From: Thermoanaerobaculia bacterium
Lineage (GTDB): Bacteria; Acidobacteriota; Thermoanaerobaculia; Multivoradales; UBA5704
Length of the DNA: 64,000 nucleotides
Direction: 5' to 3'
NCBI GenBank assembly: GCA_035536455.1
Contig: DATLOC010000053.1
Location: 135,478 to 199,477 of the forward strand
A program made the translations under genes and the position numbers. Below are positions 3,440 through 61,468 of this stretch, one piece after another. The notes under the pieces are model-generated. The model saw only the letters and a list, made by a program, of their open reading frames with translations, searched no databases and was not told the origin of the DNA. The stretch's first letter is position 1. Each line of letters begins with the position of its first letter.

Positions 3440-5578
3440 CTAGAGCGGCCTGACGGTGCAGACCTTGGCGGCGACGCGCTGGCCGGGGCCGAGGGAGAGG
3501 CGGGGGTAGACGCCGGGGTTGGGCTCGCGCTCGGCTTCGCGCTCGATCGCCTCGACGAAGGCGTCGCGGGAGAGGGTGGCGCCGAGGTGCGCCAGGGCGT
3601 GGTCGGCGAGCGACAGCACCCAGTGGGCGGTGAGCCGGTGCCGCGTGTCGTCGGCGGTCCCGCCGCCGGCGGCGCCGCGGGAGCGCAGCCAGGCGCTGGT
3701 GCGGTAGCCGTGCGGGCCCTCCTCGCCTGGCGCTCTGAAGGGGGAGACGACGGAAGAGCGCTCCTGCCAGCCGGGGGCGAGCGGCGCTTTCCCCAGGAGG
3801 GTGCCGGAAACGAAGACCTGGCGGGGGACCAGCGGCCCCGGCGGCGGCAGCGCGGCGAGGTCGGCGGCCGGCAGCCAGAGCACGAGCGCCGACAGCGCAC
3901 GGGCGCCGCGTGCGAGGAGGTCCGGCGGCAGCGGCGCGTCCGGCGGCAGCGCCCGCTCGGCGAGATCGACGCGGCCCTCGCCGGCAAGGCCCCGGCGCAA
4001 CGCGGCCGCCGCCGCGCGCCCGCGCACGTCGTCGCGGTACACCTGGAGGACGTCCGAGCGTCGGTCCGCCTGAGCGCCGTCGAGCAGGTGCCGCGCCAGC
4101 GCCTCGCCCTCCGCTTCCAGCCCACCTGAAAAATAGATGGTGTAGTCGCCGGAAGGCTCCAGCACCGGCAGGTCGGTGTCGGGGAAGAGGCAGGGGATCG
4201 CGCGCCGCTCGCAGACCTCGTGCACCGGCCGCCAGCTCCCGCCGCCCGCCCCGCCCAGCAGCGCGAAGACGGGCCGCGCGCCGAGCCGCGCCTCGAGCTG
4301 TCCCGCCCAGCCCTCCTCCGGCCCCGCCAGCTCCCAGACGTGCAGCACCCACTCGCGCCGCCGGCCGGTCAGATCCTCGCCGTATCCCGGGGTCGAGGCC
4401 GCCTTCCGCGCCAGGCCGGGGAGCATGGCGTTGCGCCAGCGGACGTAGGCCGCCGCCACCTCCAGCCAGGCCGCGCGCCGCGCCGGCTCCGCGTCGGGCG
4501 TAACGACGGTGGCGAAGTGGACCCGCGCCGGCTCGACTCCCGGCGGCTCCGTTGCGCCCAGCGTGCGCAGGTAGGCCGTGAGGTCGGCGAGGTCGCCCTC
4601 GCTCAGCTGGTAGCGCGGCATCAGCGGGTCGAGCGCCCGCCCCGTCGGGTCGTGCCCCTCGCGGAGGGCCACCGCGAGCGTGGCGTCGCCGTAGGGCGGG
4701 CGCGGCGAGCCGGTCCGCACGCGGCTCCACGGCTGCGGCGCGAGCTGCTCCTGGAAGAGGGCGCGGAAGAGGAGGCCGGTCGGAGGCGGCTCGGCGAAGA
4801 GCGCCGGCGCGGTGATCGGCGGCACCGCCACCGTCCCCTCGACGCCGCCGAAGCCGCTGCGGCGGTGGCAGGTGGCGCAGGCCGCGGCGCGGCCGGACGC
4901 CGGCACGTCCCCCTGGAGGACGGCGGCGAGCGGCGCGCCCGAGGGCAGCACGCCGCCGCGGTAGATGCGCTCCCCCGCCCGCGCGTCGCCCTCGGCCGGC
5001 GCCGGCGCGGCCGGGGGCAGGCGCTCGACCTCCGCCACCAGGTCGGCGGCGGCGAGAAAGCCGTCGATCCGCACCCAGGGCGCGCCCGGGGCGGCGCGCA
5101 GGAAGGTCGACGGCTCGTGCCGCATCTTGTCGCCGCGGTAGGCGTCGAAGGCCTCCTGCACGGCGAGGACGTCGGGCGGCTTGCCGGTCAGGAAGCGCCA
5201 GCGCCGCCCCGCCCCGAAGCGCGCCGCATACTCGCGCACGCGCGCCGGCGTGTCCTCCTCGGGGTCGATCGAGATCGAGAGGATCCGCACGTCGGGCAGC
5301 CGCTCCTGCGCCGCCGCGAGGGTCCCGGTCAGGACCGGGCAGACCGTGGCGCAGGAGGTGAAGAGGAAGTGCAGGACGACCGGCCCGGCGCGCTCCAGCT
5401 CGGCGCGTAGGCGCACCGGCGCCCCGTCCATGCCGACCAGCGCGACGTCGGGGGCGCGGTAGGCGTGGAGGGTGCGGCTGTAGCGCGGCGCGTCCGCGGC
5501 GCCGCCCGGGGGAGCGGCCAGCGCCAGCGCGCAGCCGAGGAGGACGGCCGCCTCAGTGGACCGAGAACACGGCCACAT
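3440..5578 (-). CDS. SCO1/SenC thioredoxin-like domain + c-type cytochrome (CxxCH) + periplasmic solute-binding-like domain fusion protein
   Basis: Signal peptide; the SCO motif FLFTSCATVCP with DPEEDTP; heme site CATCH; a C-terminal ~450 aa LivK/Peripla_BP-like region. 712 aa. Confidence 0.7.
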   Translation of the reverse strand: MWPCSRSTEAAVLLGCALALAAPPGGAADAPRYSRTLHAYRAPDVALVGMDGAPVRLRAELERAGPVVLHFLFTSCATVCPVLTGTLAAAQERLPDVRILSISIDPEEDTPARVREYAARFGAGRRWRFLTGKPPDVLAVQEAFDAYRGDKMRHEPSTFLRAAPGAPWVRIDGFLAAADLVAEVERLPPAAPAPAEGDARAGERIYRGGVLPSGAPLAAVLQGDVPASGRAAACATCHRRSGFGGVEGTVAVPPITAPALFAEPPPTGLLFRALFQEQLAPQPWSRVRTGSPRPPYGDATLAVALREGHDPTGRALDPLMPRYQLSEGDLADLTAYLRTLGATEPPGVEPARVHFATVVTPDAEPARRAAWLEVAAAYVRWRNAMLPGLARKAASTPGYGEDLTGRRREWVLHVWELAGPEEGWAGQLEARLGARPVFALLGGAGGGSWRPVHEVCERRAIPCLFPDTDLPVLEPSGDYTIYFSGGLEAEGEALARHLLDGAQADRRSDVLQVYRDDVRGRAAAAALRRGLAGEGRVDLAERALPPDAPLPPDLLARGARALSALVLWLPAADLAALPPPGPLVPRQVFVSGTLLGKAPLAPGWQERSSVVSPFRAPGEEGPHGYRTSAWLRSRGAAGGGTADDTRHRLTAHWVLSLADHALAHLGATLSRDAFVEAIEREAEREPNPGVYPRLSLGPGQRVAAKVCTVRPL

Positions 5579-7817
5579 CGTGGTGCAGCGGATCGAACTG
5601 GTAGAAGCGGAGCCGGCGCCCGGGGTCGAAGTTGTAGGTGATGTGGACCTTCTGGACGCTCGGCTTGTAGGGATCGCGGGTGGCGGGCGGCAGCATGACC
5701 GGCGCCGCCGTGTTGATCCACCAGTAGTTGCGGCCGAAGGTGAACCAGCAGCCCGAGCCCGCGACCTTGACCGACGACTTGTACTGGTTCTCCCAGCCGC
5801 GGCCGCCGCCGAAGTCGACGTTGATGTAGCCGCGCTGGTAGTAGTCGCCGTTGATCAGCGTCACCTTGACCTGCGTGCCGCGGGTCTGGAACGGGGGGAA
5901 GTTGATGAGGGTGCCCTGGGTGAACTCGCCGTAGATCGTGTTGTTGACGTAGAAGAGGGTGAGGTCGGCGTCCTTGTCCAGCTCGACCCCCTTGGGGAGC
6001 TGGTTCCGCTCCTTCCAGTCCTCGAAAGCGCTCCAGCCGGCGTCGGCCTGCGCCCGCACCGTCTTCCAGTCGCCCGTGCCGGCGGCGTCGCGCGCCGCGC
6101 GAAGCGCCTTCCACATCTTCTTGGCCGGCGACAGGTCCCCGATCTGGGCGATCGCATAGCTGCGCGCCTCCTCGCTCGAGGTCGGGGCCGGGCCGAAGGT
6201 GTCGATCTCCCACTGGGCGAGCGTCTTGCCGGCCACCGGCATGGTGGCGTCGTCCATCACCTGCACGCGCGGCGGGTGCATGCGCCAGCCCCAGGTGTAG
6301 ATCAGCTTGTAGTACGGGCCGGGCGCCATCTTGATCTTGAGCACCGTGCGGGTGCCCTCCTGCATCGGGAAGAAGCTCTGGTCCATGCCCATCCCCGGGC
6401 GCTTCCCCGCCGGCGGCGGCGACGGCGGGATGCACGGCGGCGGCGGCGTGGGCGGATGCGGCGCGTCGGGGGGCACCAGGTTCCAGTACATGACGTAGGG
6501 GGAGAAGTCGTCCTCGCCGCGGGTCAGGACGTCGATCGTGTAGGTGACCGTCCAGGTGACGTCGAGGGCGTTGCCGAGGCCGCTGACGTCGAGCAGCCCG
6601 GTGTCGGACTCGAAGTGGTTGTCGTACCAGACCTGGTGGACGTCGACGTTGCCGCCCACCACCTTGCCCGTGGCGTCGTAGATCGGCAGCACCTTCTTGA
6701 TCTTCTCCGGCCCGTTGTAGTGCAGCAGCGGCAGGCCGCTGTAGGCGCGGTTGCGCACCGGCCTCCCCTCCAGGATGTCGATGCCGTTCTGGATGGCCGC
6801 GCGGATCAGCTCCGACTCGACCGGGTCGCGCGGGCCGACGTCGCGCAGCCGGTCCCAGAGGGCGTCGAGGTCCTGGGTCGGCGAGATGGGGTTGATCGCG
6901 GTGACCACCGGCTCGCCGTCGTGGAGGTTGTAGAAGACGGTCGGGGTCGAGGGCAGGGTGTTCTGCACCTCGTTCCCGAGGCTGTCGAAGAGGTTGGTGT
7001 AGACGGTGGGCAGGAGGTTCGTGCCCGGCGGATCGACGAACGGGTAGCTCTGCGGGAAGTGGCTCTCGCCGGTGACGATGGTGGTGACGTTGCCTTCCGT
7101 CGTCTGGCAGGAAGGCGCCAGCGGCGGCTGCGGGTGCGGGTGCTGGGCGAAGCCGGCGGCGGCGCCGAGGCCCAGGAGGAGCCCGGCCAGGGCGGCGAGC
7201 GGCAGCGGGCCGCGCCGGCGCGGCGCGCCGGCGGCCGGCGCGCGCGGCGCGAGCCAGGCGATGCGCTCGGCGATCCACGCCGGGTCGGTCCGGGCCGGCA
7301 CCGACCCCCACAGGCCCACCGCCGCGTTGCCGTAGCGCAGCAGGCCGCGCGAGCAGTCCTGGATCGGCGCGGCGGCGTGCTCGGCGTGCGCTCCGGCCGC
7401 CGCGGCGGTCCCGGCGTCGTGCAGGAAGAGCCGCGAGCGCAGCAGCTCCATCGCCGCCGGCTCGCCGGTCAGGAAGAGCCAGCCGGGGCCGGCGCCGTGC
7501 GCGGCGGCGAAGTCGCGCAGCGCCCGCGGCGTGTCGTGCTCGGGGTCGGTAGTGAGCGAGTAGAGGAAGACGTCCCGCCCCATCCGCCCGCCGACGAGCG
7601 CCTGCACCTTGGCCAGGTTGTCGGCTACCGGGTAGGCGGCCTCGCCGGCCAGCGAGAAGACGTGCAGCACGACCGTCTTGCCGCGCACCAGGTCGCTCCA
7701 GAAGCGCGCGCGGCGGCCGTCGTGGCCCTCGACCACGACGTCGGGGAAGTAGCCCGCCGGCAGCCCGCATTGCGGCTCCTCGGCCGCCAGCCCCAGCACC
7801 TGCCTGCGGTTCATCAT
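5553..7817 (-). CDS. Tat-exported protein with an N-terminal SCO-like thioredoxin fold lacking CxxxC, plus a ~550-aa C-terminal domain of unknown function
   Basis: MMNRRQVLGLAA (RR motif); VVLHVFSLAGEAAYP...DPEHDTP is SCO-like; Pro-rich linker [23 protein letters not shown]. Start ATGATGA overlaps the MCO stop. Confidence 0.6.
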   Translation of the reverse strand: MMNRRQVLGLAAEEPQCGLPAGYFPDVVVEGHDGRRARFWSDLVRGKTVVLHVFSLAGEAAYPVADNLAKVQALVGGRMGRDVFLYSLTTDPEHDTPRALRDFAAAHGAGPGWLFLTGEPAAMELLRSRLFLHDAGTAAAAGAHAEHAAAPIQDCSRGLLRYGNAAVGLWGSVPARTDPAWIAERIAWLAPRAPAAGAPRRRGPLPLAALAGLLLGLGAAAGFAQHPHPQPPLAPSCQTTEGNVTTIVTGESHFPQSYPFVDPPGTNLLPTVYTNLFDSLGNEVQNTLPSTPTVFYNLHDGEPVVTAINPISPTQDLDALWDRLRDVGPRDPVESELIRAAIQNGIDILEGRPVRNRAYSGLPLLHYNGPEKIKKVLPIYDATGKVVGGNVDVHQVWYDNHFESDTGLLDVSGLGNALDVTWTVTYTIDVLTRGEDDFSPYVMYWNLVPPDAPHPPTPPPPCIPPSPPPAGKRPGMGMDQSFFPMQEGTRTVLKIKMAPGPYYKLIYTWGWRMHPPRVQVMDDATMPVAGKTLAQWEIDTFGPAPTSSEEARSYAIAQIGDLSPAKKMWKALRAARDAAGTGDWKTVRAQADAGWSAFEDWKERNQLPKGVELDKDADLTLFYVNNTIYGEFTQGTLINFPPFQTRGTQVKVTLINGDYYQRGYINVDFGGGRGWENQYKSSVKVAGSGCWFTFGRNYWWINTAAPVMLPPATRDPYKPSVQKVHITYNFDPGRRLRFYQFDPLHHDVAVFSVH

Positions 7818-9718
7818 GGCTCGCGCTCCTCCTCCTGGTCCTCCTGGAAGCTCGAGGCGGCGGGCCGCGACTCGAGGTGCGGCGGCGCCGCTTCCGTGCC
7901 GTAGACCGCCGAGGCCGGCCGCGAGCCGACGAAGCCCTGGCCGGGCTCGACGATGTCCCAGCGCACCATCATCGAGTGGTCCTCGTGCACCACGTTGTGG
8001 CAGTGCATGACGTACTTGCCGAGGAAGTCGGTCCAGCGCATCACCACCTTGATCTCGTCGCCGGGCAAGAGCGTCGCCACGTCGCGCCGCTTGCCGCCCA
8101 TGAAGCGCTTGATCGGCTTGGGCTTGGGCCCGCCGTCGAAGTAAGGGACGTGGACCTCCTCCCCCTCGTGCCAGTCCTGCACCCAGCTGCGGTCGAAGGG
8201 CACGCCGTTGACCTCGAGGATCAGGAACTCGGTGAAGTGGCTGTGGATGGGGTGCGACCAGGAGTTGCCGCCGTTGCGGAAGATCCACACTTCCGCCGTC
8301 CCCTGCTCGATGCCGGCGTCGATGCGGTTGGGGTCGAAGACCTTGCCGTTGACCGTCCACAGGCCGCCGTCGTAGTCGAACTCCCACACCCGCTCGCGGC
8401 GGATCTCGCCGGGCTCGATGTGCGGCCACTCGCGGAACCTGTCGGGGACGCGGCTGGGGTCGGGGCCGGTGGCGGCGACGACCCGGAACTCGATCAGCGG
8501 ATCGCCGGGGTCGAGCATGCGGCCCGAAGGCCCCTTGCCGTTGGTCTGCTCGAGGCGGTTCATCACCCGCACCGTCTCCCCCACCCGGTACTGCGAGAAG
8601 TCGAGGATGATGTCCACGCGCTGGGCGACCGAGAGGAAGATGCTCTCGGCCTCGAGCGGCCGCGGCAGGATGTTGCCGTCGCCGCTGATGACGAGGAAGG
8701 GACGGCCGCTCGAGAGGAAGATCTGGTAGAAGCGCGACGGCCCGCCGTTCAAGATGCGGAAGCGGTACTTGCGCCGCTCGACCTCGAAGTAGGGCTGGAT
8801 GCGGCGGTTGACGGTGTAGCGGTCGCCGAGGATGCCGTCGGTGTTGAAGGGGTTCCAGCGCACCTGGCCGGTCTCGTCGAACATCACGTCGTGGAGGATC
8901 AACGGCACGTCGTACTTGCCGCTCGGCAGGCCCCAGGCGGGCGGCGGGTCGTTCTCGTTGCCGGTGTCCCGATCGTCGAAGAGGCAGTAGAAGCCGTCGA
9001 GCCCGGCGTAGACGTTCGAGGCGGTGAAGTCCAGGCGGTGGTCGTGGTACCAGAGGGTAGTGAGCTTCTCGCGCGGGTCGAAGTTGGACGGGAAGTTGGG
9101 GTAGTGGTGGTCCCAGAACTCACCGGTGTCGATCCAGTCCTGCGGCTGGCCGTCGCTCTCCGAGGCGGTGTGGCCGTTGTGCAGGTGGCTGGTCGTCGAG
9201 GGCAGCGCGAAGTTGACCTTGCTCACCCCGACCGGCGGCAGGTCGTTGTAGCGCCGCACCAGGATCGCCTCGCCGTAGCGCGCGTGGTAGGTGGGCCCGG
9301 GGGTCGAGCCGTTGAAGCCCCACGACAGGCTGCCGGTCTTCCACGGCGGGCCGTCGGAGCCCCACGTCGGGCTGCCGTCGCCGTAGGGCGGGTCCGGGTG
9401 GTAGGACCAGAGGAATTCCTGCTCGCGGATCTCGTAGAACTTCTGCGGCTTGAACTCCTCGTAGCGCTGGTGCGCGCGCGGATCGGGCTGCGGGTCGAGC
9501 TTCGCGACCGGCTGCATGATCGGCGGCACGAAGAGCGGCGCGACGAAGGGCCGCGCCGGCGGGCTCGGGGTGGCGAGATCGGGCGGCTCGCCGTCGGGCG
9601 GGCAGAGGAACTTGAGCAGATCGCTCGGGTCGGCGGCCGCGGCGCGCCGGGCGAGGAGCCCGGAACCGCCGGCCACCAACCCGAGCTTGAGGACTTCCCT
9701 CCGTCGGATCATCGGCAC
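7814..9718 (-). CDS. multicopper oxidase (three cupredoxin domains), Tat-secreted
   Basis: RRREVLKLG Tat motif. Copper-site motifs HLHNGH, WYHDH, HPIHSH and HCHNVVHEDHSMM. Confidence 0.85.
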   Translation of the reverse strand: MPMIRRREVLKLGLVAGGSGLLARRAAAADPSDLLKFLCPPDGEPPDLATPSPPARPFVAPLFVPPIMQPVAKLDPQPDPRAHQRYEEFKPQKFYEIREQEFLWSYHPDPPYGDGSPTWGSDGPPWKTGSLSWGFNGSTPGPTYHARYGEAILVRRYNDLPPVGVSKVNFALPSTTSHLHNGHTASESDGQPQDWIDTGEFWDHHYPNFPSNFDPREKLTTLWYHDHRLDFTASNVYAGLDGFYCLFDDRDTGNENDPPPAWGLPSGKYDVPLILHDVMFDETGQVRWNPFNTDGILGDRYTVNRRIQPYFEVERRKYRFRILNGGPSRFYQIFLSSGRPFLVISGDGNILPRPLEAESIFLSVAQRVDIILDFSQYRVGETVRVMNRLEQTNGKGPSGRMLDPGDPLIEFRVVAATGPDPSRVPDRFREWPHIEPGEIRRERVWEFDYDGGLWTVNGKVFDPNRIDAGIEQGTAEVWIFRNGGNSWSHPIHSHFTEFLILEVNGVPFDRSWVQDWHEGEEVHVPYFDGGPKPKPIKRFMGGKRRDVATLLPGDEIKVVMRWTDFLGKYVMHCHNVVHEDHSMMVRWDIVEPGQGFVGSRPASAVYGTEAAPPHLESRPAASSFQEDQEEEREP

Positions 9719-9817
9719 CTCCGAGGAGCGGCTAGTCGACTGCTGGCTGCTGGAACGCCCAGAAAGCTAGCCGGGCTTCATCAACTTGTCAAGCACAGGA
9801 TCTTCCTTGTTGACGGG

Positions 9818-11431
9818 TCATTGACAGGCGAACGCCTCGATGTCCTGCACCGGGAGGTACGCCTTCCCCTGCGGGTTGAAGTAGCGCCGCGTGCGCCCGG
9901 TCTGGGTGTCGGTGACGATGACCAGCACCTCGACGTCGGTCAAGCCGCTGGCGAAGAACCAGTAGTGGTCGTTGACGGCGCAGCCTTCGAGCACCTTGAC
10001 GACCAGCTCGGTGTTGTCCTCGTTGAAGAACCAGAAGCGGCCGGAGTCGGCGGTGTCCGCGACGGCGAAGCCGTGGCCGCCGACGCCGCCGGTCTTCCAG
10101 AGCGCCTCGACCTTGAAGCGTCCGCCCTGCAGGCAGAGGTTGGCGATGCCGGGGACGCAGGGGCCGCTCGCGGCGAGCGGCCCGAGCTGGCTGAAGAAGA
10201 CCAGGTCCCCGAGCGCCCGCCCGGTCTGCAAACCGACCTGGTTGTCGTACTGCCAGTGGATGCCGCCGTAGATGCGGCTCTGCCCCGCTTCGTTGGCCGC
10301 CTGCGAGAAGCTGGTGAACGAGCGCGTGACGCCCGGCAGGCCGTCGGAGCCGTCGTCGAAGGAGAAGTTGTCGGTGCCGAAGAACTGCCCGAGGACGCGC
10401 GCGGCCGCGCCGCTGAAGGTGCTGTGCCCGGAGGTGTAGGCCGGGAAGGGTGGCGTGACGATCAGCGGCGTCCAGGCGGGGTCGGCGACGGTGTTCGGGT
10501 TGCCGTCCTTGTCGGCGTTGGGGATGCCGGTGAAGGGCCGCCAGTGGTTGTAGGCGTACTTGTGGTCCCAGGAGACGATCGCCGCGTCGGCCTCGGCGAT
10601 GCTCAGCAGCGCCAGCAGGCGCGACTTCTCGAGCAGCGACAGCCCCTCCTCCTCGGCGATGTGCTGGGCGATCACCAGCCAGTGCCCGGGCGGAGTGGCC
10701 GTGCCCGCGCCATCGGCCCAGAAGAGGGCGATCTGGGTCTGCTCGGGGGTGCGCGTGCTGCCGGTGGCCCGGCCCAGGCGCTTCACCTCGTTGAAGGCGA
10801 TCGTGTACTGGACGCTGGTGAGCGAGGGCGGCGGCCCCGCCCGGAGCTGCGAGCCGGTCTGCAGCGCCCAGGGGGTGACCAGCGGCCACTGCGGCAGCAG
10901 TCCGGCGGCGAAGGCGGGACCGGTCGGGATCCACCAGTTGGCGCCGTCGATGGTGTTGTAGGCGACGACCCGGTCGTGGCCGTCGTCGACGCGCAGGGCG
11001 AGGATCTGGTCGGCCACGTCCTGCCCCCAAGCGACGCCGATGGCCGCCGCGTTGCCGTCGGCGATGGTCGCCAGCGAGGCCGCGAGGGCGGCGTCGAAGG
11101 TCGCCTGCTGCGCCGGGAAGAGCGCCGAGAGCGCGCGGTGCGCCGCGGCGGCCGCCGCGGCCTCCGGCGAGGCGCCGGCCGGGGCGTCGTCGGTGACGTG
11201 GTACGGCGAGTAGCCGCCGAGGATCCCGACCAGGGCGTCGAAGATCGAGACGTGGACGATCGCCATGGCGCGGCTGGCGCGCGGCGGCGGCGTCTTGTCG
11301 GTGCGGACGGCGTCGAGCAGCTCCTCGTTCCAGTCCGACACGACGTCGGCGCGGGCGGCGCCGGCGGCGCCGAGCAGCCCGGCGCACAGCATGAGGACGA
11401 ACAGCTTCCGAGACATGACGGCCTCCTTCAA
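9818..11431 (-). CDS. secreted PAP2-superfamily / vanadium-dependent haloperoxidase-like protein
   Basis: Signal peptide. PAP2 motifs K-x6-RP (KYAYNHWRP), SGH (YTSGHSTF) and SR-x5-H-x3-D (SRIYGGIHWQYD). Confidence 0.75.
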   Translation of the reverse strand: MKEAVMSRKLFVLMLCAGLLGAAGAARADVVSDWNEELLDAVRTDKTPPPRASRAMAIVHVSIFDALVGILGGYSPYHVTDDAPAGASPEAAAAAAAHRALSALFPAQQATFDAALAASLATIADGNAAAIGVAWGQDVADQILALRVDDGHDRVVAYNTIDGANWWIPTGPAFAAGLLPQWPLVTPWALQTGSQLRAGPPPSLTSVQYTIAFNEVKRLGRATGSTRTPEQTQIALFWADGAGTATPPGHWLVIAQHIAEEEGLSLLEKSRLLALLSIAEADAAIVSWDHKYAYNHWRPFTGIPNADKDGNPNTVADPAWTPLIVTPPFPAYTSGHSTFSGAAARVLGQFFGTDNFSFDDGSDGLPGVTRSFTSFSQAANEAGQSRIYGGIHWQYDNQVGLQTGRALGDLVFFSQLGPLAASGPCVPGIANLCLQGGRFKVEALWKTGGVGGHGFAVADTADSGRFWFFNEDNTELVVKVLEGCAVNDHYWFFASGLTDVEVLVIVTDTQTGRTRRYFNPQGKAYLPVQDIEAFACQ

Positions 11432-11563: not shown

Positions 11564-13018
11564 TCAGTAGCGCGGGACCGCCGGGTCGACCCGGGTGCTC
11601 CAGGCGTCGATGCCGCCGGCGAGGTTCTTGGCGCGGTCGTAGCCCATGCTCAGGAGGAAGGCGACCGCCTGCGCCGAGCGCATGCCGTGGTGGCAGTGGG
11701 CGACGATGGTGGCTGCCGGGTCGAGCTCGCCCAGACGGTCGCGCAGCTCCTGGAGCGGGATGAGCCGCGCCCCCTCGATGCGCGCGATGTCGTGCTCCTG
11801 CGGGCTCCGCACGTCGAGCACCACCAGGTCGCGCCCCTCGTCGCGCCAGCGCTTGAGCTCCTCGGGCTGCACGTCGAAGTCGTATCCCATCGCCCCCTCC
11901 GGCCGCGGCGCGACGCCGCAGAACTGCTCGTAGTCGATCAGGCCGCGCTGCGTCGGGTGCTCGGAGCAAACCGGGCAGGCGGGGTCCTTGCGCAGCTTGA
12001 GCTCGCGGAACCGCATCTTGAGGGCGTCGAAGAGGACGAGGCGCCCGATCAGCGGCTCCCCCACCCCGACGACCAGCTTCACCACCTCGTTGGCCTGCAG
12101 CGCGCCGATGATCCCGGGCAGCACGCCGAGCACCCCGCCCTCGGCGCAGGAGGGCACCAGCCCGGGCGGCGGCGGCTCCGGGAAGAGGCAGCGGTAGCAG
12201 GGCCCGCGCGCCCCCCAGAAGATCGAGACCTGCCCCTCGAAGCGGAAGATCGAGCCGTAGACGTTGGGCTTGCCGGCCAGCACGCAGGCGTCGTTGACGA
12301 GATACCGGGTGGGGAAGTTGTCGGTGCCGTCCACGACGATGTCGTAGCCGGCGAAGAGCTCGAGGGCGTTCTGCGAGGTGAGGCGGGTCTCGTGCGGCAC
12401 AAGAGTCACGTGCGGGTTGACGTCGTGCAGCCGCTCGAGCGCCGCCTGGATCTTCGGGCGGCCGACGTCCGAGCGGCCGTAGAGCACCTGGCGGTGGAGG
12501 TTCGACTCGTCGACGACGTCGAAGTCGACCAGCCCGAGCTTGCCGACGCCGGCCGCCGCGAGGTAGAGCCCCAGCGGCGACCCCAGCCCGCCGGCGCCGA
12601 TGAGCAGGACGCGCGAGGCCTTGAGCTTCCGCTGCCCCGCCGTCCCCACCTCCGGCATGATGAGGTGGCGGCTGTAGTGGCGGATCTCGGAGGGCTCCAG
12701 CTCGGGAAGGTCCGCGGCTCGCGCCGGCGGCGGCTCCGCCGCCACGCCGCCGGCAATCGACGGCACGATCGAGAGCGCGTCCCCCGCCGCCACTGGCGAG
12801 CGCTCGCGCGCCGCGAGGTAGCGCACGTCCTCGTCGTTGACGAAGACGTTGACGAAGCTGCGCAGGCGCCCGTCGTCGGTGTAGAGGTGGCGCTCGAGCC
12901 CCGGGTGGCGCCGGACGAGGTCGCGCAGCGCCTCCTCGACCGTCGCCCCCTCGACCGCGATCTCCCCCTGCTCGCCGGTGAAGCGGCGGAGCGGGGTCGG
13001 GATGTGGATGGTCGGCAT
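11564..13018 (-). CDS. moeZ: MoaD/CysO-like sulfur-carrier domain (ends ...SIAGG) fused to a MoeZ/MoeB-ThiF E1 adenylyltransferase and a C-terminal rhodanese
   Basis: The N-terminal ~90 aa are a ThiS/MoaD fold ending in GG. E1 motifs GAGGLGS, CYRC...CPVC. Rhodanese active-site CHHGMRS. Confidence 0.8.
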   Translation of the reverse strand: MPTIHIPTPLRRFTGEQGEIAVEGATVEEALRDLVRRHPGLERHLYTDDGRLRSFVNVFVNDEDVRYLAARERSPVAAGDALSIVPSIAGGVAAEPPPARAADLPELEPSEIRHYSRHLIMPEVGTAGQRKLKASRVLLIGAGGLGSPLGLYLAAAGVGKLGLVDFDVVDESNLHRQVLYGRSDVGRPKIQAALERLHDVNPHVTLVPHETRLTSQNALELFAGYDIVVDGTDNFPTRYLVNDACVLAGKPNVYGSIFRFEGQVSIFWGARGPCYRCLFPEPPPPGLVPSCAEGGVLGVLPGIIGALQANEVVKLVVGVGEPLIGRLVLFDALKMRFRELKLRKDPACPVCSEHPTQRGLIDYEQFCGVAPRPEGAMGYDFDVQPEELKRWRDEGRDLVVLDVRSPQEHDIARIEGARLIPLQELRDRLGELDPAATIVAHCHHGMRSAQAVAFLLSMGYDRAKNLAGGIDAWSTRVDPAVPRY

Positions 13019-13040: not shown

Positions 13041-13523
13041 TTAGGGTGCGCTCTCGCTCCGCTCGGGCACCGGCGGACCGGCCGTGGCACTCTCCTCCGA
13101 CTGGCGCTCGATCGGCTCCTCGACGAAGGCGGAGCGGTCGTCGGCGAGGCGCCAGCTCCGCACCTCGGAGGCCTTGCCGTCGGTCACCGCCACGATCAGG
13201 TACGACACCCCCGGCCAGGCGTTCTCGCGGTCGAACTCGCTCGGCTGCGCCGGGTGGTCGGGGTGCGAGTGGTAGTAGCCGACGATCTCGAGGCCCTCCT
13301 CGCGCGCCGCGCGCTGCGCCGCGAGCACCGTCTCCGGGCCGATGACGAAGCGGTTGCCGCGGCTCTCCTCGCGCTCGTTGTCGGCCGGCACGATCCGCTG
13401 GACCAGCAGCCGCTCACCCTCGGCCTTGCCGAGGAGGATGCCGCAGCACTCCTCGGGGTAGGCCGCGGCGGCGTGCCGCTCGATGGCGGCCAGGTCGGAG
13501 GGCACGAGGACGAGGGCGGTCAT
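13041..13523 (-). CDS. mec: JAMM/MPN+ zinc metalloprotease (Mec-like CysO-processing enzyme)
   Basis: EECCGILLG plus YYHSHPDHPAQPSEFD (JAMM). ATGA overlap with cysM. The track ORF's N-terminal extension is junk. Confidence 0.8.
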   Translation of the reverse strand: MTALVLVPSDLAAIERHAAAAYPEECCGILLGKAEGERLLVQRIVPADNEREESRGNRFVIGPETVLAAQRAAREEGLEIVGYYHSHPDHPAQPSEFDRENAWPGVSYLIVAVTDGKASEVRSWRLADDRSAFVEEPIERQSEESATAGPPVPERSESAP

Positions 13524-14506
13524 GACGGGCTCGCGGGCTCCTCCCAGAAGCGCTCGGACAGGTACTTGTCGGCGCCGTCGCAGAGGACCGTGACCAGCGT
13601 AGCACCCTCGCCGGCGCCGCCATCTCCGCCGGCGGCGAGCCGCGCCGCCAGCCGCAGCGCCGCCGCCACGTTGGCGCCCGACGAGATCCCGGCCAGCACG
13701 CCGGCCTCGCGCGCCAGGCGGCGGACCATGGCTTGCGCCTCCTCGGTCGTCACCTCCCAGGCCTCGTCGGCCAGCGCCGGGTCGTAGATCGGCGGCACGA
13801 TGGCCGAGGCCATGTGCTTCATCCCCTCGAGGCCGTGAAAGGCGCTGTCGGGCTCGACCGAGATCAGCCGCACGCCGGGCGCCCGCTCGCGGAGACACCG
13901 CCCCACCCCCATGAACGTACCGCTGGTCCCCAGGCCGGCGACGAAGTGGGTGAGGCGGCCGCCGGTCTGCGCCCAGATCTCGGGGCCGGTCGAGCGGTAG
14001 TGGGCGCCCCAGTTCTCGGGGTTGGAGTACTGGTCGAGGTAGGCGTAGCGCGCGGGGTCGGCCCCGGCGAGGCGGCGGGCCTCGAGGATGGCGCCGTCGC
14101 TCCCGGTCAGCGGGTCGGTGAGGAGCAGCTCGACGCCGTAGGCGGCGAGGATGCGCTTGCGCTCCGGGCTGGCGTTGGCCGGCAGGCAGAGCGTGACGGG
14201 GATGCCGAGAGCGGCACCGATCATGGCGTAGGCGATCCCGGTGTTGCCGGAGGTGGAATCGAGGAGCCGGCGTGGGCCGCCTGGCGCGAGGAGCCCGCGG
14301 CGGACGGCGTCCTCGATCATGGCGAGCGCCGGGCGGTCTTTGACCGAGCCGCCGGGGTTGGCCAGCTCGGCCTTGGCGTAGAGGCGGACGCGCGGGGACC
14401 CGGTCAGGTGCGAGAGGTCGAGGAGCGGGGTGCGCCCGATGAGGTCGAGCAGCCGGCGCGGCCCCGGGCCGCCGGCGGGCGAGGCTTCGTCCTCGGCCTG
14501 CGTCAT
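13520..14506 (-). CDS. cysM: cysteine synthase, CysM/CysK family (PLP-dependent)
   Basis: GGSVKDRPAL PLP lysine motif; TSGNTG; GTSGT loop. Start MTQAEDEA. Confidence 0.85.
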   Translation of the reverse strand: MTQAEDEASPAGGPGPRRLLDLIGRTPLLDLSHLTGSPRVRLYAKAELANPGGSVKDRPALAMIEDAVRRGLLAPGGPRRLLDSTSGNTGIAYAMIGAALGIPVTLCLPANASPERKRILAAYGVELLLTDPLTGSDGAILEARRLAGADPARYAYLDQYSNPENWGAHYRSTGPEIWAQTGGRLTHFVAGLGTSGTFMGVGRCLRERAPGVRLISVEPDSAFHGLEGMKHMASAIVPPIYDPALADEAWEVTTEEAQAMVRRLAREAGVLAGISSGANVAAALRLAARLAAGGDGGAGEGATLVTVLCDGADKYLSERFWEEPASPS

Positions 14507-14604
14507 GGAGAAGAGAGGAACCGGAGAGAGGGAGCTTCCACCTCCCAAGCTAACAGAGGTCGGCCGCGGGGGCAAGGGGCGGCGCGGCAGGGCCCACGCG
14601 GGAC

Positions 14605-15105
14605 TCAGTTCGCGTTCTTGTCGACCTGCTCGATCAGCGTCTCCGGCCCCGGCAGCGGCGCCACCAGCGCGGCCTCGACCGCCTCCTCCTCGAGCCCCTG
14701 CCGGTCGGAGGAGAGCCGCCAGGCCCGCGTCTCCACCACCTGGCCGGCCGAGATCGCCGTCAGCAGGTAGCTCATGCCCGGGCGCAGCGTCTCGAGCTCC
14801 AGCTCGCTCGGCGTTGCCGTGTCGCCCGCGCGCGCCAGGTAATAGCCGACGACCTCCATCCCCAGTGACTGCGCCTCGTGCGCGGCGGCGGCGTGGGTCT
14901 CGGCCGGGACCGGATCGGCGCCTTGACCTTCGCCGCCGCCGTCGGCCGGCTGCACCGCGAGGATCCGCTCGACGAAGATCTTCTCCAGGCCGTTGCGATG
15001 CGGGCGGCCGATGAGGACGCCGCAGCACTCGCCCGGGTACGTCATAGCGGCGTGGCGGCCGATGGCGTGCAGGTGAGTGGGCGAGATCACGAGATGGCAG
15101 TTCAT
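14605..15105 (-). CDS. MPN-domain protein lacking the JAMM histidines (predicted inactive paralog of Mec)
   Basis: GECCGVLIGR is conserved, but the HSHP-x7-S-x2-D position reads YYLARAGDTATPSELE. Start MNCHLVISP. Confidence 0.6.
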   Translation of the reverse strand: MNCHLVISPTHLHAIGRHAAMTYPGECCGVLIGRPHRNGLEKIFVERILAVQPADGGGEGQGADPVPAETHAAAAHEAQSLGMEVVGYYLARAGDTATPSELELETLRPGMSYLLTAISAGQVVETRAWRLSSDRQGLEEEAVEAALVAPLPGPETLIEQVDKNAN

Positions 15106-60830: not shown

Positions 60831-61468
60831 TGCCCGAGGGCCGCGGCGTCGAGCCCGAGGCGGTGTATCGCCTCGTCGTCGAAGGCGTCGTAGTAGCCGC
60901 GGATGCGGCCTTCGCCGTCCACCAGGACGAAACGGTTGCTGTGGAGGATCGGCTCCTGGGGCGACGCCGTCCCCGGCGGCGGCGACGGCTCGACGGCGAG
61001 CAGAAAGCCCTCGCGGACCAAGGGGTAGACCTCGGCGGCCGAGCCGCTCAGGAAAAGCCAGTCGTCGGGCGCGGCGTAGCGCTCGGCGTAGCGCGCCAGC
61101 ACCTCCGGCGTGTCGTGCTCCGGGTCGACGGTGAAGCTGACGCGGCGGAACGGGGGCTCCTCTCGCCCGCGGCCCAGGTCCGCCATCCGCTCGGTCATCA
61201 GCGGGCAGGACAGGGCGCAGCGGGTGAAGACGAAGTCGGCCACCCAGGGGCGGCCGGCGAGGTCGGCGCGGGTGACCGTGCGGCCGTCGCGGTTGGTGAG
61301 CGCGAAGTCCGGCACCTGCCCGAGCACGGGCGGCGGCGCGGCCTCCCCGCCCGCCAACCGGCTCCAGAGCGCGGCGCCGCCGATCCCCACCAGCGCCAGC
61401 ACCAGCACCGCCCAGAGGACGAGCCGCTGGAAACGGCGCGCGGACGCCGACGCGGGCGCGACGCTCAA
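60821..61468 (-). CDS. SCO1/SenC copper chaperone
   Basis: TTG start in TTGA overlap; TM; FVFTRCALSCP CxxxC; DPEHDTPEVL. Confidence 0.8.
   Translation of the reverse strand: MSVAPASASARRFQRLVLWAVLVLALVGIGGAALWSRLAGGEAAPPPVLGQVPDFALTNRDGRTVTRADLAGRPWVADFVFTRCALSCPLMTERMADLGRGREEPPFRRVSFTVDPEHDTPEVLARYAERYAAPDDWLFLSGSAAEVYPLVREGFLLAVEPSPPPGTASPQEPILHSNRFVLVDGEGRIRGYYDAFDDEAIHRLGLDAAALGHEG

Follow-up and report, generated by a model that had tools for sequence, protein, structure and literature searches.

Gene organisation of the oxidase locus

The 64,000-nucleotide (nt) stretch of DNA analysed here, referred to as the window, belongs to contig DATLOC010000053.1 (positions 135,478 to 199,477) of assembly GCA_035536455.1, assigned to a Thermoanaerobaculia bacterium of the Acidobacteriota. 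The window has a G+C content of ~75% and carries on its minus strand three tightly packed open reading frames (ORFs), 7814-9718 (634 amino acids, aa), 5553-7817 (754 aa) and 3440-5578 (712 aa), encoding a multicopper oxidase (MCO) and two fusion proteins, here gene 2 and gene 3, that together probably represent the Thermoanaerobaculia counterpart of ioxABCDE, the gene cluster of an iodide-oxidising enzyme (IOX) of Iodidimonas. A sequence-only reading of this DNA had described an MCO gene followed by two fusion genes with SCO domains; all three ORFs were confirmed at the positions it gave, and its label of a copper oxidase operon holds. The same reading had the genes chained by overlapping stops and starts of the form ATGATGA, which holds for the MCO stop and the gene 2 start (an ATGA overlap inside ATGATGA) but not for the junction of gene 2 and gene 3, where the overlap is 26 nt (gene 3 ATG at 5578, gene 2 stop at 5553). 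Gene 2 encodes 754 aa when translated from its first ATG and 753 aa from its second.

A missed stop codon, or C-terminal regions belonging to a well-known family, had been named as observations that would undo the description of gene 2 and gene 3 as fusions. No internal stop codon was found in the gene 2 reading frame, and IoxC, to which the C-terminal part of its product corresponds, is not a well-known family, so that neither observation was made in the sense intended. The National Center for Biotechnology Information (NCBI) holds a 100%-identical record of the 712-aa protein from a Thermoanaerobaculia metagenome-assembled genome, and the same fusions recur across numerous independent assemblies, among them a complete chromosome and that of the cultured Tahibacter soli BL, which argues that they are not assembly artefacts. 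The features of the locus are collected in Table 1.

Table 1. Features of the oxidase locus and its upstream neighbour, in window coordinates.
Feature	Position	Strand	Basis
IoxA-type three-domain MCO, 634 aa	7814-9718	-	Pfam and 51% identity to IoxA
Twin-arginine signal RRREVLK of MCO	9686-9706	-	sequence motif
MCO copper motif HLHNGH	9170-9187	-	sequence motif
MCO copper motif HDH	9038-9046	-	sequence motif
MCO copper motif HPIHSH	8237-8254	-	sequence motif
MCO copper motif HCHNVVHEDHSM	7970-8005	-	sequence motif
IoxB-like domain, gene 2 residues 1-199	7221-7817	-	SCO1-SenC below cutoff; 34% identity to IoxB
Conserved Cys in QCGLP, IoxB-like domain	7758-7772	-	sequence motif
SLAGEAAYP at former CxxxC position	7629-7655	-	sequence motif
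Conserved Cys in DCSRGLLRYGN, IoxB-like domain	7326-7358	-	sequence motif
Fusion junction, gene 2 residues 200-225	7143-7220	-	comparison with stand-alone IoxB-like and IoxC-like proteins
IoxC-like domain, gene 2 residues 226-754	5556-7142	-	39% identity to 644-aa Iodidimonas muriae protein
Invariant YTWGWRxHPPR, IoxC-like	6267-6299	-	family alignment
Invariant DFGGxRGWENQ, IoxC-like	5784-5816	-	family alignment
Invariant GSG[C/P]WFTFGR, IoxC-like	5730-5759	-	family alignment
Invariant C-terminal FDPxHHDVAxFSVH, IoxC-like	5556-5597	-	family alignment
Cupredoxin-fold domain, last 146 residues of IoxC-like part	5556-5993	-	predicted structure
IoxD-like genuine SCO1 with signal peptide, gene 3 residues 1-190	5009-5578	-	Pfam SCO1-SenC, E 3e-15
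CATVCP of gene 3 SCO1	5336-5353	-	sequence motif
His in DKMRHEP of gene 3 SCO1	5111-5131	-	sequence motif
IoxE-like c-type cytochrome domain, gene 3 residues ~196-345	4544-4993	-	Pfam Cytochrom_C
CATCH haem motif	4865-4879	-	sequence motif
Invariant MPRY, likely axial Met	4610-4624	-	alignment
IoxE-like domain resembling a divergent type-I periplasmic binding protein (gene 3 residues ~346-712)	3443-4543	-	homologue Peripla_BP_6 matches
Secreted vanadium-haloperoxidase-like protein, 99 nt upstream of MCO	9818-11431	-	Pfam PAP2 and VCPO_2nd

Correspondence with the iox cluster and conservation across genomes

The iox cluster was described in 2012 from Iodidimonas sp. Q-1, with ioxA encoding an MCO, ioxB, ioxD and ioxF encoding SCO1/SenC-like proteins, ioxC (71 kDa) and ioxE encoding products of unknown function, and gsp genes on its flanks (PMC9415286). 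The extracellular iodide-oxidising enzyme purified from Iodidimonas sp. Q-1 and Roseovarius sp. A-2 is made up of IoxA and IoxC and contains both Cu and Zn; its substrates are iodide, which is converted to I2, and phenolics (PMC9415286). The link to Iodidimonas was found through the cluster members of profile-search representatives, among which a hypothetical protein of 644 aa from Iodidimonas muriae and I. gelatinilytica matched the IoxC-like profile with E 2e-158; the genus was not among the top 120 matches of a homology search seeded with an alphaproteobacterial homologue. At the Iodidimonas locus (L086), gsp type-II secretion genes are followed by genes for an MCO, a SCO-like protein (219 aa), the 644-aa protein, a SCO1 (239 aa), a 573-aa cytochrome c protein and a second SCO1 (214 aa). 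This order is that of the published ioxABCDEF layout with its flanking gsp genes, and the size of the 644-aa protein agrees with the 71 kDa published for IoxC.

By pairwise alignment, each of the five modules of the window has one homologous counterpart among IoxA, IoxB, IoxC, IoxD and IoxE, in matching order and at identities of 29-51%. The window and Iodidimonas (and Roseovarius) systems share an IoxA-type MCO with all four copper motifs, the IoxC C-terminus RLRFYQFDPxHHxVAxxSVH, an identical CATVCP in IoxD and a CxxCH motif in IoxE. They differ in that ioxB-ioxC and ioxD-ioxE are fused in the window, whose host is an acidobacterium of ~75% G+C and not a marine or brine alphaproteobacterium. 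The window IoxB-like domain has a cysteine in a DCS motif that Iodidimonas IoxB lacks, its IoxC-like domain has Cys476 (His and Cys numbering of IoxC follows the 540-aa domain) and an HPHPQP motif, both missing from Iodidimonas IoxC, and a vanadium-haloperoxidase-like gene lies upstream. The architecture had been taken for an uncharacterised one, however its unfused counterparts are ioxB, ioxC, ioxD and ioxE of the cluster described in 2012 (PMC9415286), and the locus represents a fused form of a system that is known, though hardly characterised.

The MCO, with an N-terminus reading MPMIRRREVLKLGLVAGGSGLLARRAAAA, matches the Pfam families Cu-oxidase, Cu-oxidase_2 and Cu-oxidase_3 and has intact copper motifs (HLH, HDH, HPIHSH and HCHNVVHEDHSM). 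It shares 51% identity with Iodidimonas IoxA over 571 aa (BLASTP, E 0). The nearest solved structures are those of CotA and bilirubin oxidases (E ~1e-55, residues 132-592), which have their copper ligand motifs in common with the window MCO but are single polypeptides without an IoxC-like partner, whereas the window MCO falls in the IoxA clade and has an extra N-terminal region of ~100 residues relative to them.

A scan of one genome per species (~185,600 species genomes) recovered relatives of IoxC in 253, and statistics on loci were drawn from the 80 best matches. Acidobacteriota account for 59 of these 80 genomes most similar to the query, a sample biased by the acidobacterial origin of that query; other carriers among the best 80 are Gammaproteobacteria (Tahibacter soli BL, Wenzhouxiangellaceae, BD1-7, Arenicella and Methylocaldum), Alphaproteobacteria, Planctomycetota, a cyanobacterium, Rhodothermales and Actinomycetota. 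The neighbourhoods of three relatives contain the same modules, fused or separate. MCO, SCO-like and IoxC-like modules follow one another in that order in 66 of the 80 distinct loci, and the SCO-like-IoxC pair is found in 74; SCO1 and cytochrome c/binding-protein modules follow downstream in about 45. No other conserved neighbours (transporters, regulators, secretion genes) were found in these loci, and the divergence of the MCO correlates with that of the IoxC-like protein (r = 0.87).

Homologues of the 754-aa protein form two classes, one fused and 730-870 aa in length, the other stand-alone proteins of ~540-600 aa that match only the C-terminal part at 55-60% identity. The SCO-like and IoxC-like modules lie in one reading frame in 17 of the 74 loci that pair them, as do SCO1 and cytochrome c in 18 of 40 scored loci; the ioxB-ioxC and ioxD-ioxE fusions are recurrent, each independent of the other.

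Domains of the fusion proteins and neighbouring genes

The larger part of gene 2 had been described as ~550 aa without a recognisable motif, in an architecture that could be a copper-loading or redox-partner module. The first description stands in so far as this ~530-aa domain has no Pfam, NCBIfam or PDB sequence match, either as a single sequence or as a profile; the stretch is, however, 39% identical along its full length to Iodidimonas IoxC (593 aa aligned; BLASTP, E 9e-120; E 2e-120 in a separate pairwise run), and corresponds to a subunit that co-purifies with the MCO and not to a chaperone add-on. Marginal single-sequence matches to Sco (E 0.05) and to iota-carbonic anhydrase (E 0.25) were discarded. 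An exhaustive profile search of 1.84 billion proteins, taken as 50%-identity representatives, returned 288 representatives of the IoxC family and no remote relatives. Among the family variants found outside the window, P0276, P0280 and P0295 (996-1225 aa) carry an N-terminal CHRD domain, and P0275, P0266 and P0281 have long extra regions without a Pfam match.

An AlphaFold2 model of the 540-residue domain (predicted local distance difference test, pLDDT, 77.5; predicted template modelling score 0.85) combines beta-rich domains with a four-helix bundle, which is variable, and a Pro-rich insert modelled as disordered. This insert (6395-6478, minus strand; gene 2 residues ~447-474) is absent from most homologues. 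The C-terminal 146 residues model as a cupredoxin fold, an eight-stranded Greek-key beta sandwich superposable on cupredoxins, and the model as a whole gives weaker cupredoxin and MCO-like structural signals. Of the residues that could bind a metal, only H300, H531, H532 and the C-terminal H540 are invariant across 100 family members, Iodidimonas IoxC included; the last three lie in the cupredoxin-fold domain. No motif of the canonical cupredoxin copper ligands His/Cys/His(/Met) was found in the IoxC-like domain. Single-domain cupredoxins (nitrosocyanin, Cupredoxin_1, EfeO/FtrB-type) have no sequence similarity to the IoxC C-terminal domain and differ from it in their Cys-His-Met set, its universally conserved candidate ligands being His only; they differ also in context, since the IoxC domain is one part of a protein of ~530 residues that also contains another beta domain and the four-helix bundle.

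Two other readings of IoxC were rejected. Foldseek matches in the PDB were to MCOs only, but with E 3e-4 and a template modelling (TM) score of ~0.14, which, together with an hhalign probability of 0.2%, argues against a cryptic MCO. The HPHPQP motif was considered as an N-terminal histidine brace, however it lies ~20 residues past the signal cleavage site in stand-alone homologues, and its absence from Iodidimonas IoxC counts further against that role.

The IoxB-like N-terminal part of gene 2 gives the sole Pfam match of the protein, to SCO1-SenC at residues 67-128 (E 5e-4), with 20.4 bits against a cutoff of 22.8, and is 34% identical to Iodidimonas IoxB over 185 aa (BLASTP, E 6e-31). It is recognisably of the same fold as SCO1/SenC chaperones such as B. 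subtilis Sco/YpmQ and human SCO1, however the CxxxC motif and the conserved His of these chaperones were not found in it; instead a Cys (DCS) stands at or beside the His position and another conserved Cys lies near the N-terminus. The sequence-only reading, which had both cysteines lost, was thus correct for CxxxC and overlooked the two conserved cysteines that are kept. Judged by these motifs, the domain derives from SCO1/SenC but would not function as a canonical member of that family. Both SCO domains of the window differ from the chaperones also in being fused to other proteins, and neither is linked to a cytochrome oxidase.

Among 71 IoxB-like proteins, 61 have D-C-[S/A]-x4-RYGN and lack CxxxCP, while four, from as many lineages, retain CxxxCP and also have a His that lies one residue away from the position of the D-C-[S/A] cysteine; methanotroph forms are His-rich instead. 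The prevalence of the D-C-[S/A]-x4-RYGN motif and the few lineages that keep CxxxCP and His indicate that IoxB is a SCO that has been rewired and not simply degraded. In loci L065, L066, L075 and L077, a minority branch of the cassette, the ioxB position is occupied by a SCO with canonical CxxxCP and His, and SCO1/cytochrome c genes are missing downstream; this may represent the ancestral arrangement.

Stand-alone IoxB-like proteins usually carry a complete twin-arginine translocation (Tat) signal with a conserved Cys close behind it, and a conserved C-terminal R-x-G-P tail. In the clade of the window and in Iodidimonas IoxB the signal is cut to RR and about six hydrophobic residues, and for this reason the earlier designation of the gene 2 product as a Tat protein is doubtful. 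The fusion junction consists of an R-x-G-P tail of the IoxB type followed by a retained IoxC signal peptide (LAALAGLLLGLGAAAGFAQ / HPHPQP). The fusion has a truncated twin-arginine signal at its N-terminus and an internal signal-peptide-like segment (RRRGPLPLAALAGLLLGLGAAAGFAQ/HPHPQ) midway along, and the junction may be cleaved or membrane-spanning.

In gene 3, the reading of the 712-aa product as a genuine SCO1 with CxxxC, a CxxCH haem domain and a binding-protein-like domain agrees with Pfam and homologue matches, as do the domains proposed for the two fusions together (degenerate SCO, SCO1, c-type haem and type-I binding-protein-like). The SCO1 has CxxxC and the downstream His on a SCO1/SenC fold signature by Pfam, PDB and motif evidence (B. 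subtilis Sco/YpmQ in the PDB, E 5e-11), and shares 46% identity with IoxD over 166 aa (E 2e-47) and the motif CATVCP. The middle domain reaches 23.3 bits against the Cytochrom_C cutoff of 21.3, a family matched in 23 of 23 homologues, and residues C38, C41, H42 and M124 are invariant in the alignment of these 23 sequences (A2); at the sequence level its CxxCH and distal Met are those of a class I c-type cytochrome. It is 40% identical to the N-terminus of IoxE over 148 aa (E 3e-31). For the C-terminal domain, Peripla_BP_6 was matched in 11 of 23 homologues (best E 2e-8) and in precomputed matches, the window sequence alone falling below Pfam significance; the family profile gives weak matches to Leu/Ile/Val-binding proteins (E 0.06), and the domain is 29% identical to the C-terminus of IoxE over 369 aa (E 7e-41).

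A search of a plasmid collection did not find IoxC. IoxE-like proteins occur in Burkholderiaceae replicons away from MCOs, so that the IoxE module is not specific to oxidase operons. On Paraburkholderia plasmid AP028202.1 (L085, 1-10542), the IoxE-like cytochrome c/binding-protein gene is preceded, in place of an MCO, by a gene for a giant cadherin-like protein and by three short hypothetical genes, of which one is LolA-like.

The protein encoded immediately upstream of the MCO has as its best PDB match 4cit (E 3e-44, residues 64-412), a vanadium-dependent haloperoxidase, the Zobellia iodoperoxidase, and keeps the vanadate-site motifs K..RP, SGHS and SRIYGGIH. The frame 9789-11387 was rejected for this gene in favour of 9818-11431, the apparent conservation of the former being DNA-level similarity. 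Only in close relatives (L001/L005 and L006) does such a gene stand beside the cluster, and it is a clade-specific neighbour that possibly forms part of the same unit as the oxidase genes; if the haloperoxidase assignment is true, two types of halide-oxidising enzyme would lie side by side. A C-terminal extra domain of ~120 residues in this protein has paralogues elsewhere (L001, L012). Further upstream on the minus strand, 11564-13018 and 13520-15028 hold a ThiS-ThiF-rhodanese triple fusion and a PALP (cysteine-synthase-like) gene, a set that in relative L001 includes JAB-domain genes. These genes are of the sulfur-carrier-protein type of pathway and lie outside the conserved oxidase cassette.

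Proposed mechanism, alternatives and significance

In the IOX-type system proposed here, the Tat-exported IoxA-like MCO would be the catalytic subunit, with substrate electrons entering at the type-1 copper and O2 reduced to water at the trinuclear centre, and the IoxC-like protein would be its stoichiometric partner subunit, built partly on a cupredoxin fold. H300, H531, H532 and H540 of IoxC probably make up an extra all-His metal site, for Cu or for the Zn reported from IOX, or else belong to the interface with IoxA. Lacking CxxxC, the IoxB-like domain could not bind copper in the manner of SCO proteins, and the ioxB-ioxC fusion suggests a role tied to IoxC, in which it would serve as an assembly factor specific to that subunit or stay with it as a permanent accessory. 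The IoxD-like SCO1 would deliver Cu(I) and/or reduce cysteines during maturation, a redox-dependent step for which the IoxE cytochrome may supply or remove an electron; the fusion of a SCO1 to a haem domain suggests that the two cooperate. The earlier reading of the fusions as MCO maturation or partner modules is reasonable in this light. Iodide is the substrate characterised for the family, and the physiological substrate in this soil-type host would most likely be a halide (iodide) and/or phenolics.

An improbable alternative is a system for oxidising Mn(II) or another metal, of the mnxG/mofA type, in which the MCO would oxidise Mn(II)/Fe(II) extracellularly with the aid of the SCO and cytochrome c/binding-protein accessory set. 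The operons of Mn oxidases (Pseudomonas putida mnxG; mofABC; G. sulfurreducens ompB) resemble the window locus in having an MCO followed by SCO1/SenC genes and a protein annotated as cytochrome c/substrate-binding, and this pairing, the novelty of which had been implied, is already annotated in the mnxG operon and around mofA/ompB. In particular, mofA is followed by mofC, encoding a protein with a cytochrome c domain, and the ompB cluster has a MofC-like gene and a SCO1 gene (PMC5566968, PMC8218464); in addition, the nearest solved relatives are MCOs of the CotA type, for which Mn(II) oxidation in vitro is reported (PMC3618234). The catalytic MCO of the window is, however, closest to IoxA, and IoxC, its universally co-occurring partner, is not reported in mnxG or mofA operons, whose cytochrome c/binding protein resembles IoxE by description only. 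MnxG and MofA are much larger MCOs of other classes. The IoxE-like accessory is itself not diagnostic of Mn oxidation, since the Paraburkholderia copy stands beside the giant cadherin-like protein with no adjoining MCO. The chance of a copper-detoxification operon of the CueO/PcoA type, with the MCO oxidising periplasmic Cu(I) and SCO-type proteins buffering copper, is slighter still. An MCO and copper chaperone-like genes in one operon, a Tat signal on the MCO as in CueO, and the CueO model as best NCBIfam match would all suit it, however that match scores 152 bits against a cutoff of 525, the surroundings of the cassette in the 80 loci show no conserved copB/pcoB, copC, copD or efflux genes, and the nearest characterised relative is an iodide/phenol oxidase. 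Both of these alternatives fit the affinities of the MCO poorly.

A real though minor chance attaches to a general laccase-like oxidase for phenolic or humic substrates, with iodide oxidation as a side activity and IoxC and IoxE serving substrate binding or electron transfer. Most carriers among the examined loci are soil Acidobacteriota, from a phenolic-rich environment, and Peripla_BP_6 includes binding proteins for lignin-derived aromatic acids. The vanadium-haloperoxidase-like gene directly upstream in this clade points instead to halides, and the laccase-like alternative concerns the substrate only, being compatible with the architecture of an IOX-type system.

Several observations weigh against the identification with IOX or against parts of the mechanism. 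The locus has no ioxF counterpart and the 64-kb window no gsp secretion genes. A SCO1/SenC homologue was found far from the cluster (~61016-61318, minus strand; tblastn with IoxD, E 5e-19), which could be the usual SCO of cytochrome oxidase, or else an ioxF-like gene that has become detached. The 644-aa protein is called IoxC on the basis of gene order, size and the description in a review, and not of published peptide sequences. Iodide oxidation by the window organism, like IOX-type activity, complex formation and metal content in the acidobacterial homologues, is predicted from sequence. For IoxC itself, the probable metal site is drawn from residue conservation together with a model of medium confidence. 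Cys476 is missing from 25 of the 100 family members and is replaced by Pro in Iodidimonas IoxC, and profile comparison (the hhalign value above) gives no sequence relationship between IoxC and MCOs. The most conserved loop (DFGGxRGWENQ...GSGxWFTFGR) is the least confident part of both models (pLDDT <50), which would fit an interface or a cofactor-dependent region. The IoxB-like domain may lie in the periplasm or in the cytoplasm. As to the substrate, the IOX enzymes that have been studied were obtained from brines rich in iodide, of which most soils contain little. These enzymes also oxidise phenolics (PMC9415286), so that iodide may not be the natural substrate here.

A more far-reaching proposal, which we regard as speculative and rather unlikely, is that IoxC represents a new type of metalloprotein subunit, in which a cupredoxin-containing partner with an all-His Cu/Zn site (H300/H531/H532/H540) would confer halide oxidation on a CotA-like MCO, that IoxB would be a ligand-rewired SCO and the dedicated assembly factor of IoxC, and that the cluster, taken with the vanadium-haloperoxidase-like gene beside it, would point to soil Acidobacteriota as overlooked iodide oxidisers that iodinate soil organic matter.

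IOX is the only biochemically defined bacterial iodide oxidase, and five of the six iox genes are without an assigned role. New here are both fusions, the conservation of gene order across phyla, the loss of CxxxC in most IoxB-like proteins, the cupredoxin-fold C-terminus of IoxC and the haloperoxidase-like gene upstream. The natural fusions pair IoxB with IoxC and IoxD with IoxE, yielding testable hypotheses on which protein matures which, and the cupredoxin fold with four invariant histidines provides a first structural handle on IoxC. If these enzymes do not oxidise iodide, they still form a conserved two-subunit oxidase with a substrate to be found. The survey extends the family beyond iodide-rich brines, and the retention of iodine and radio-iodine (129I) in soils has been attributed to extracellular oxidases of unknown origin (PMC10019592); if the enzymes of this family do oxidise iodide, they would have a bearing on iodine and 129I retention in soil.

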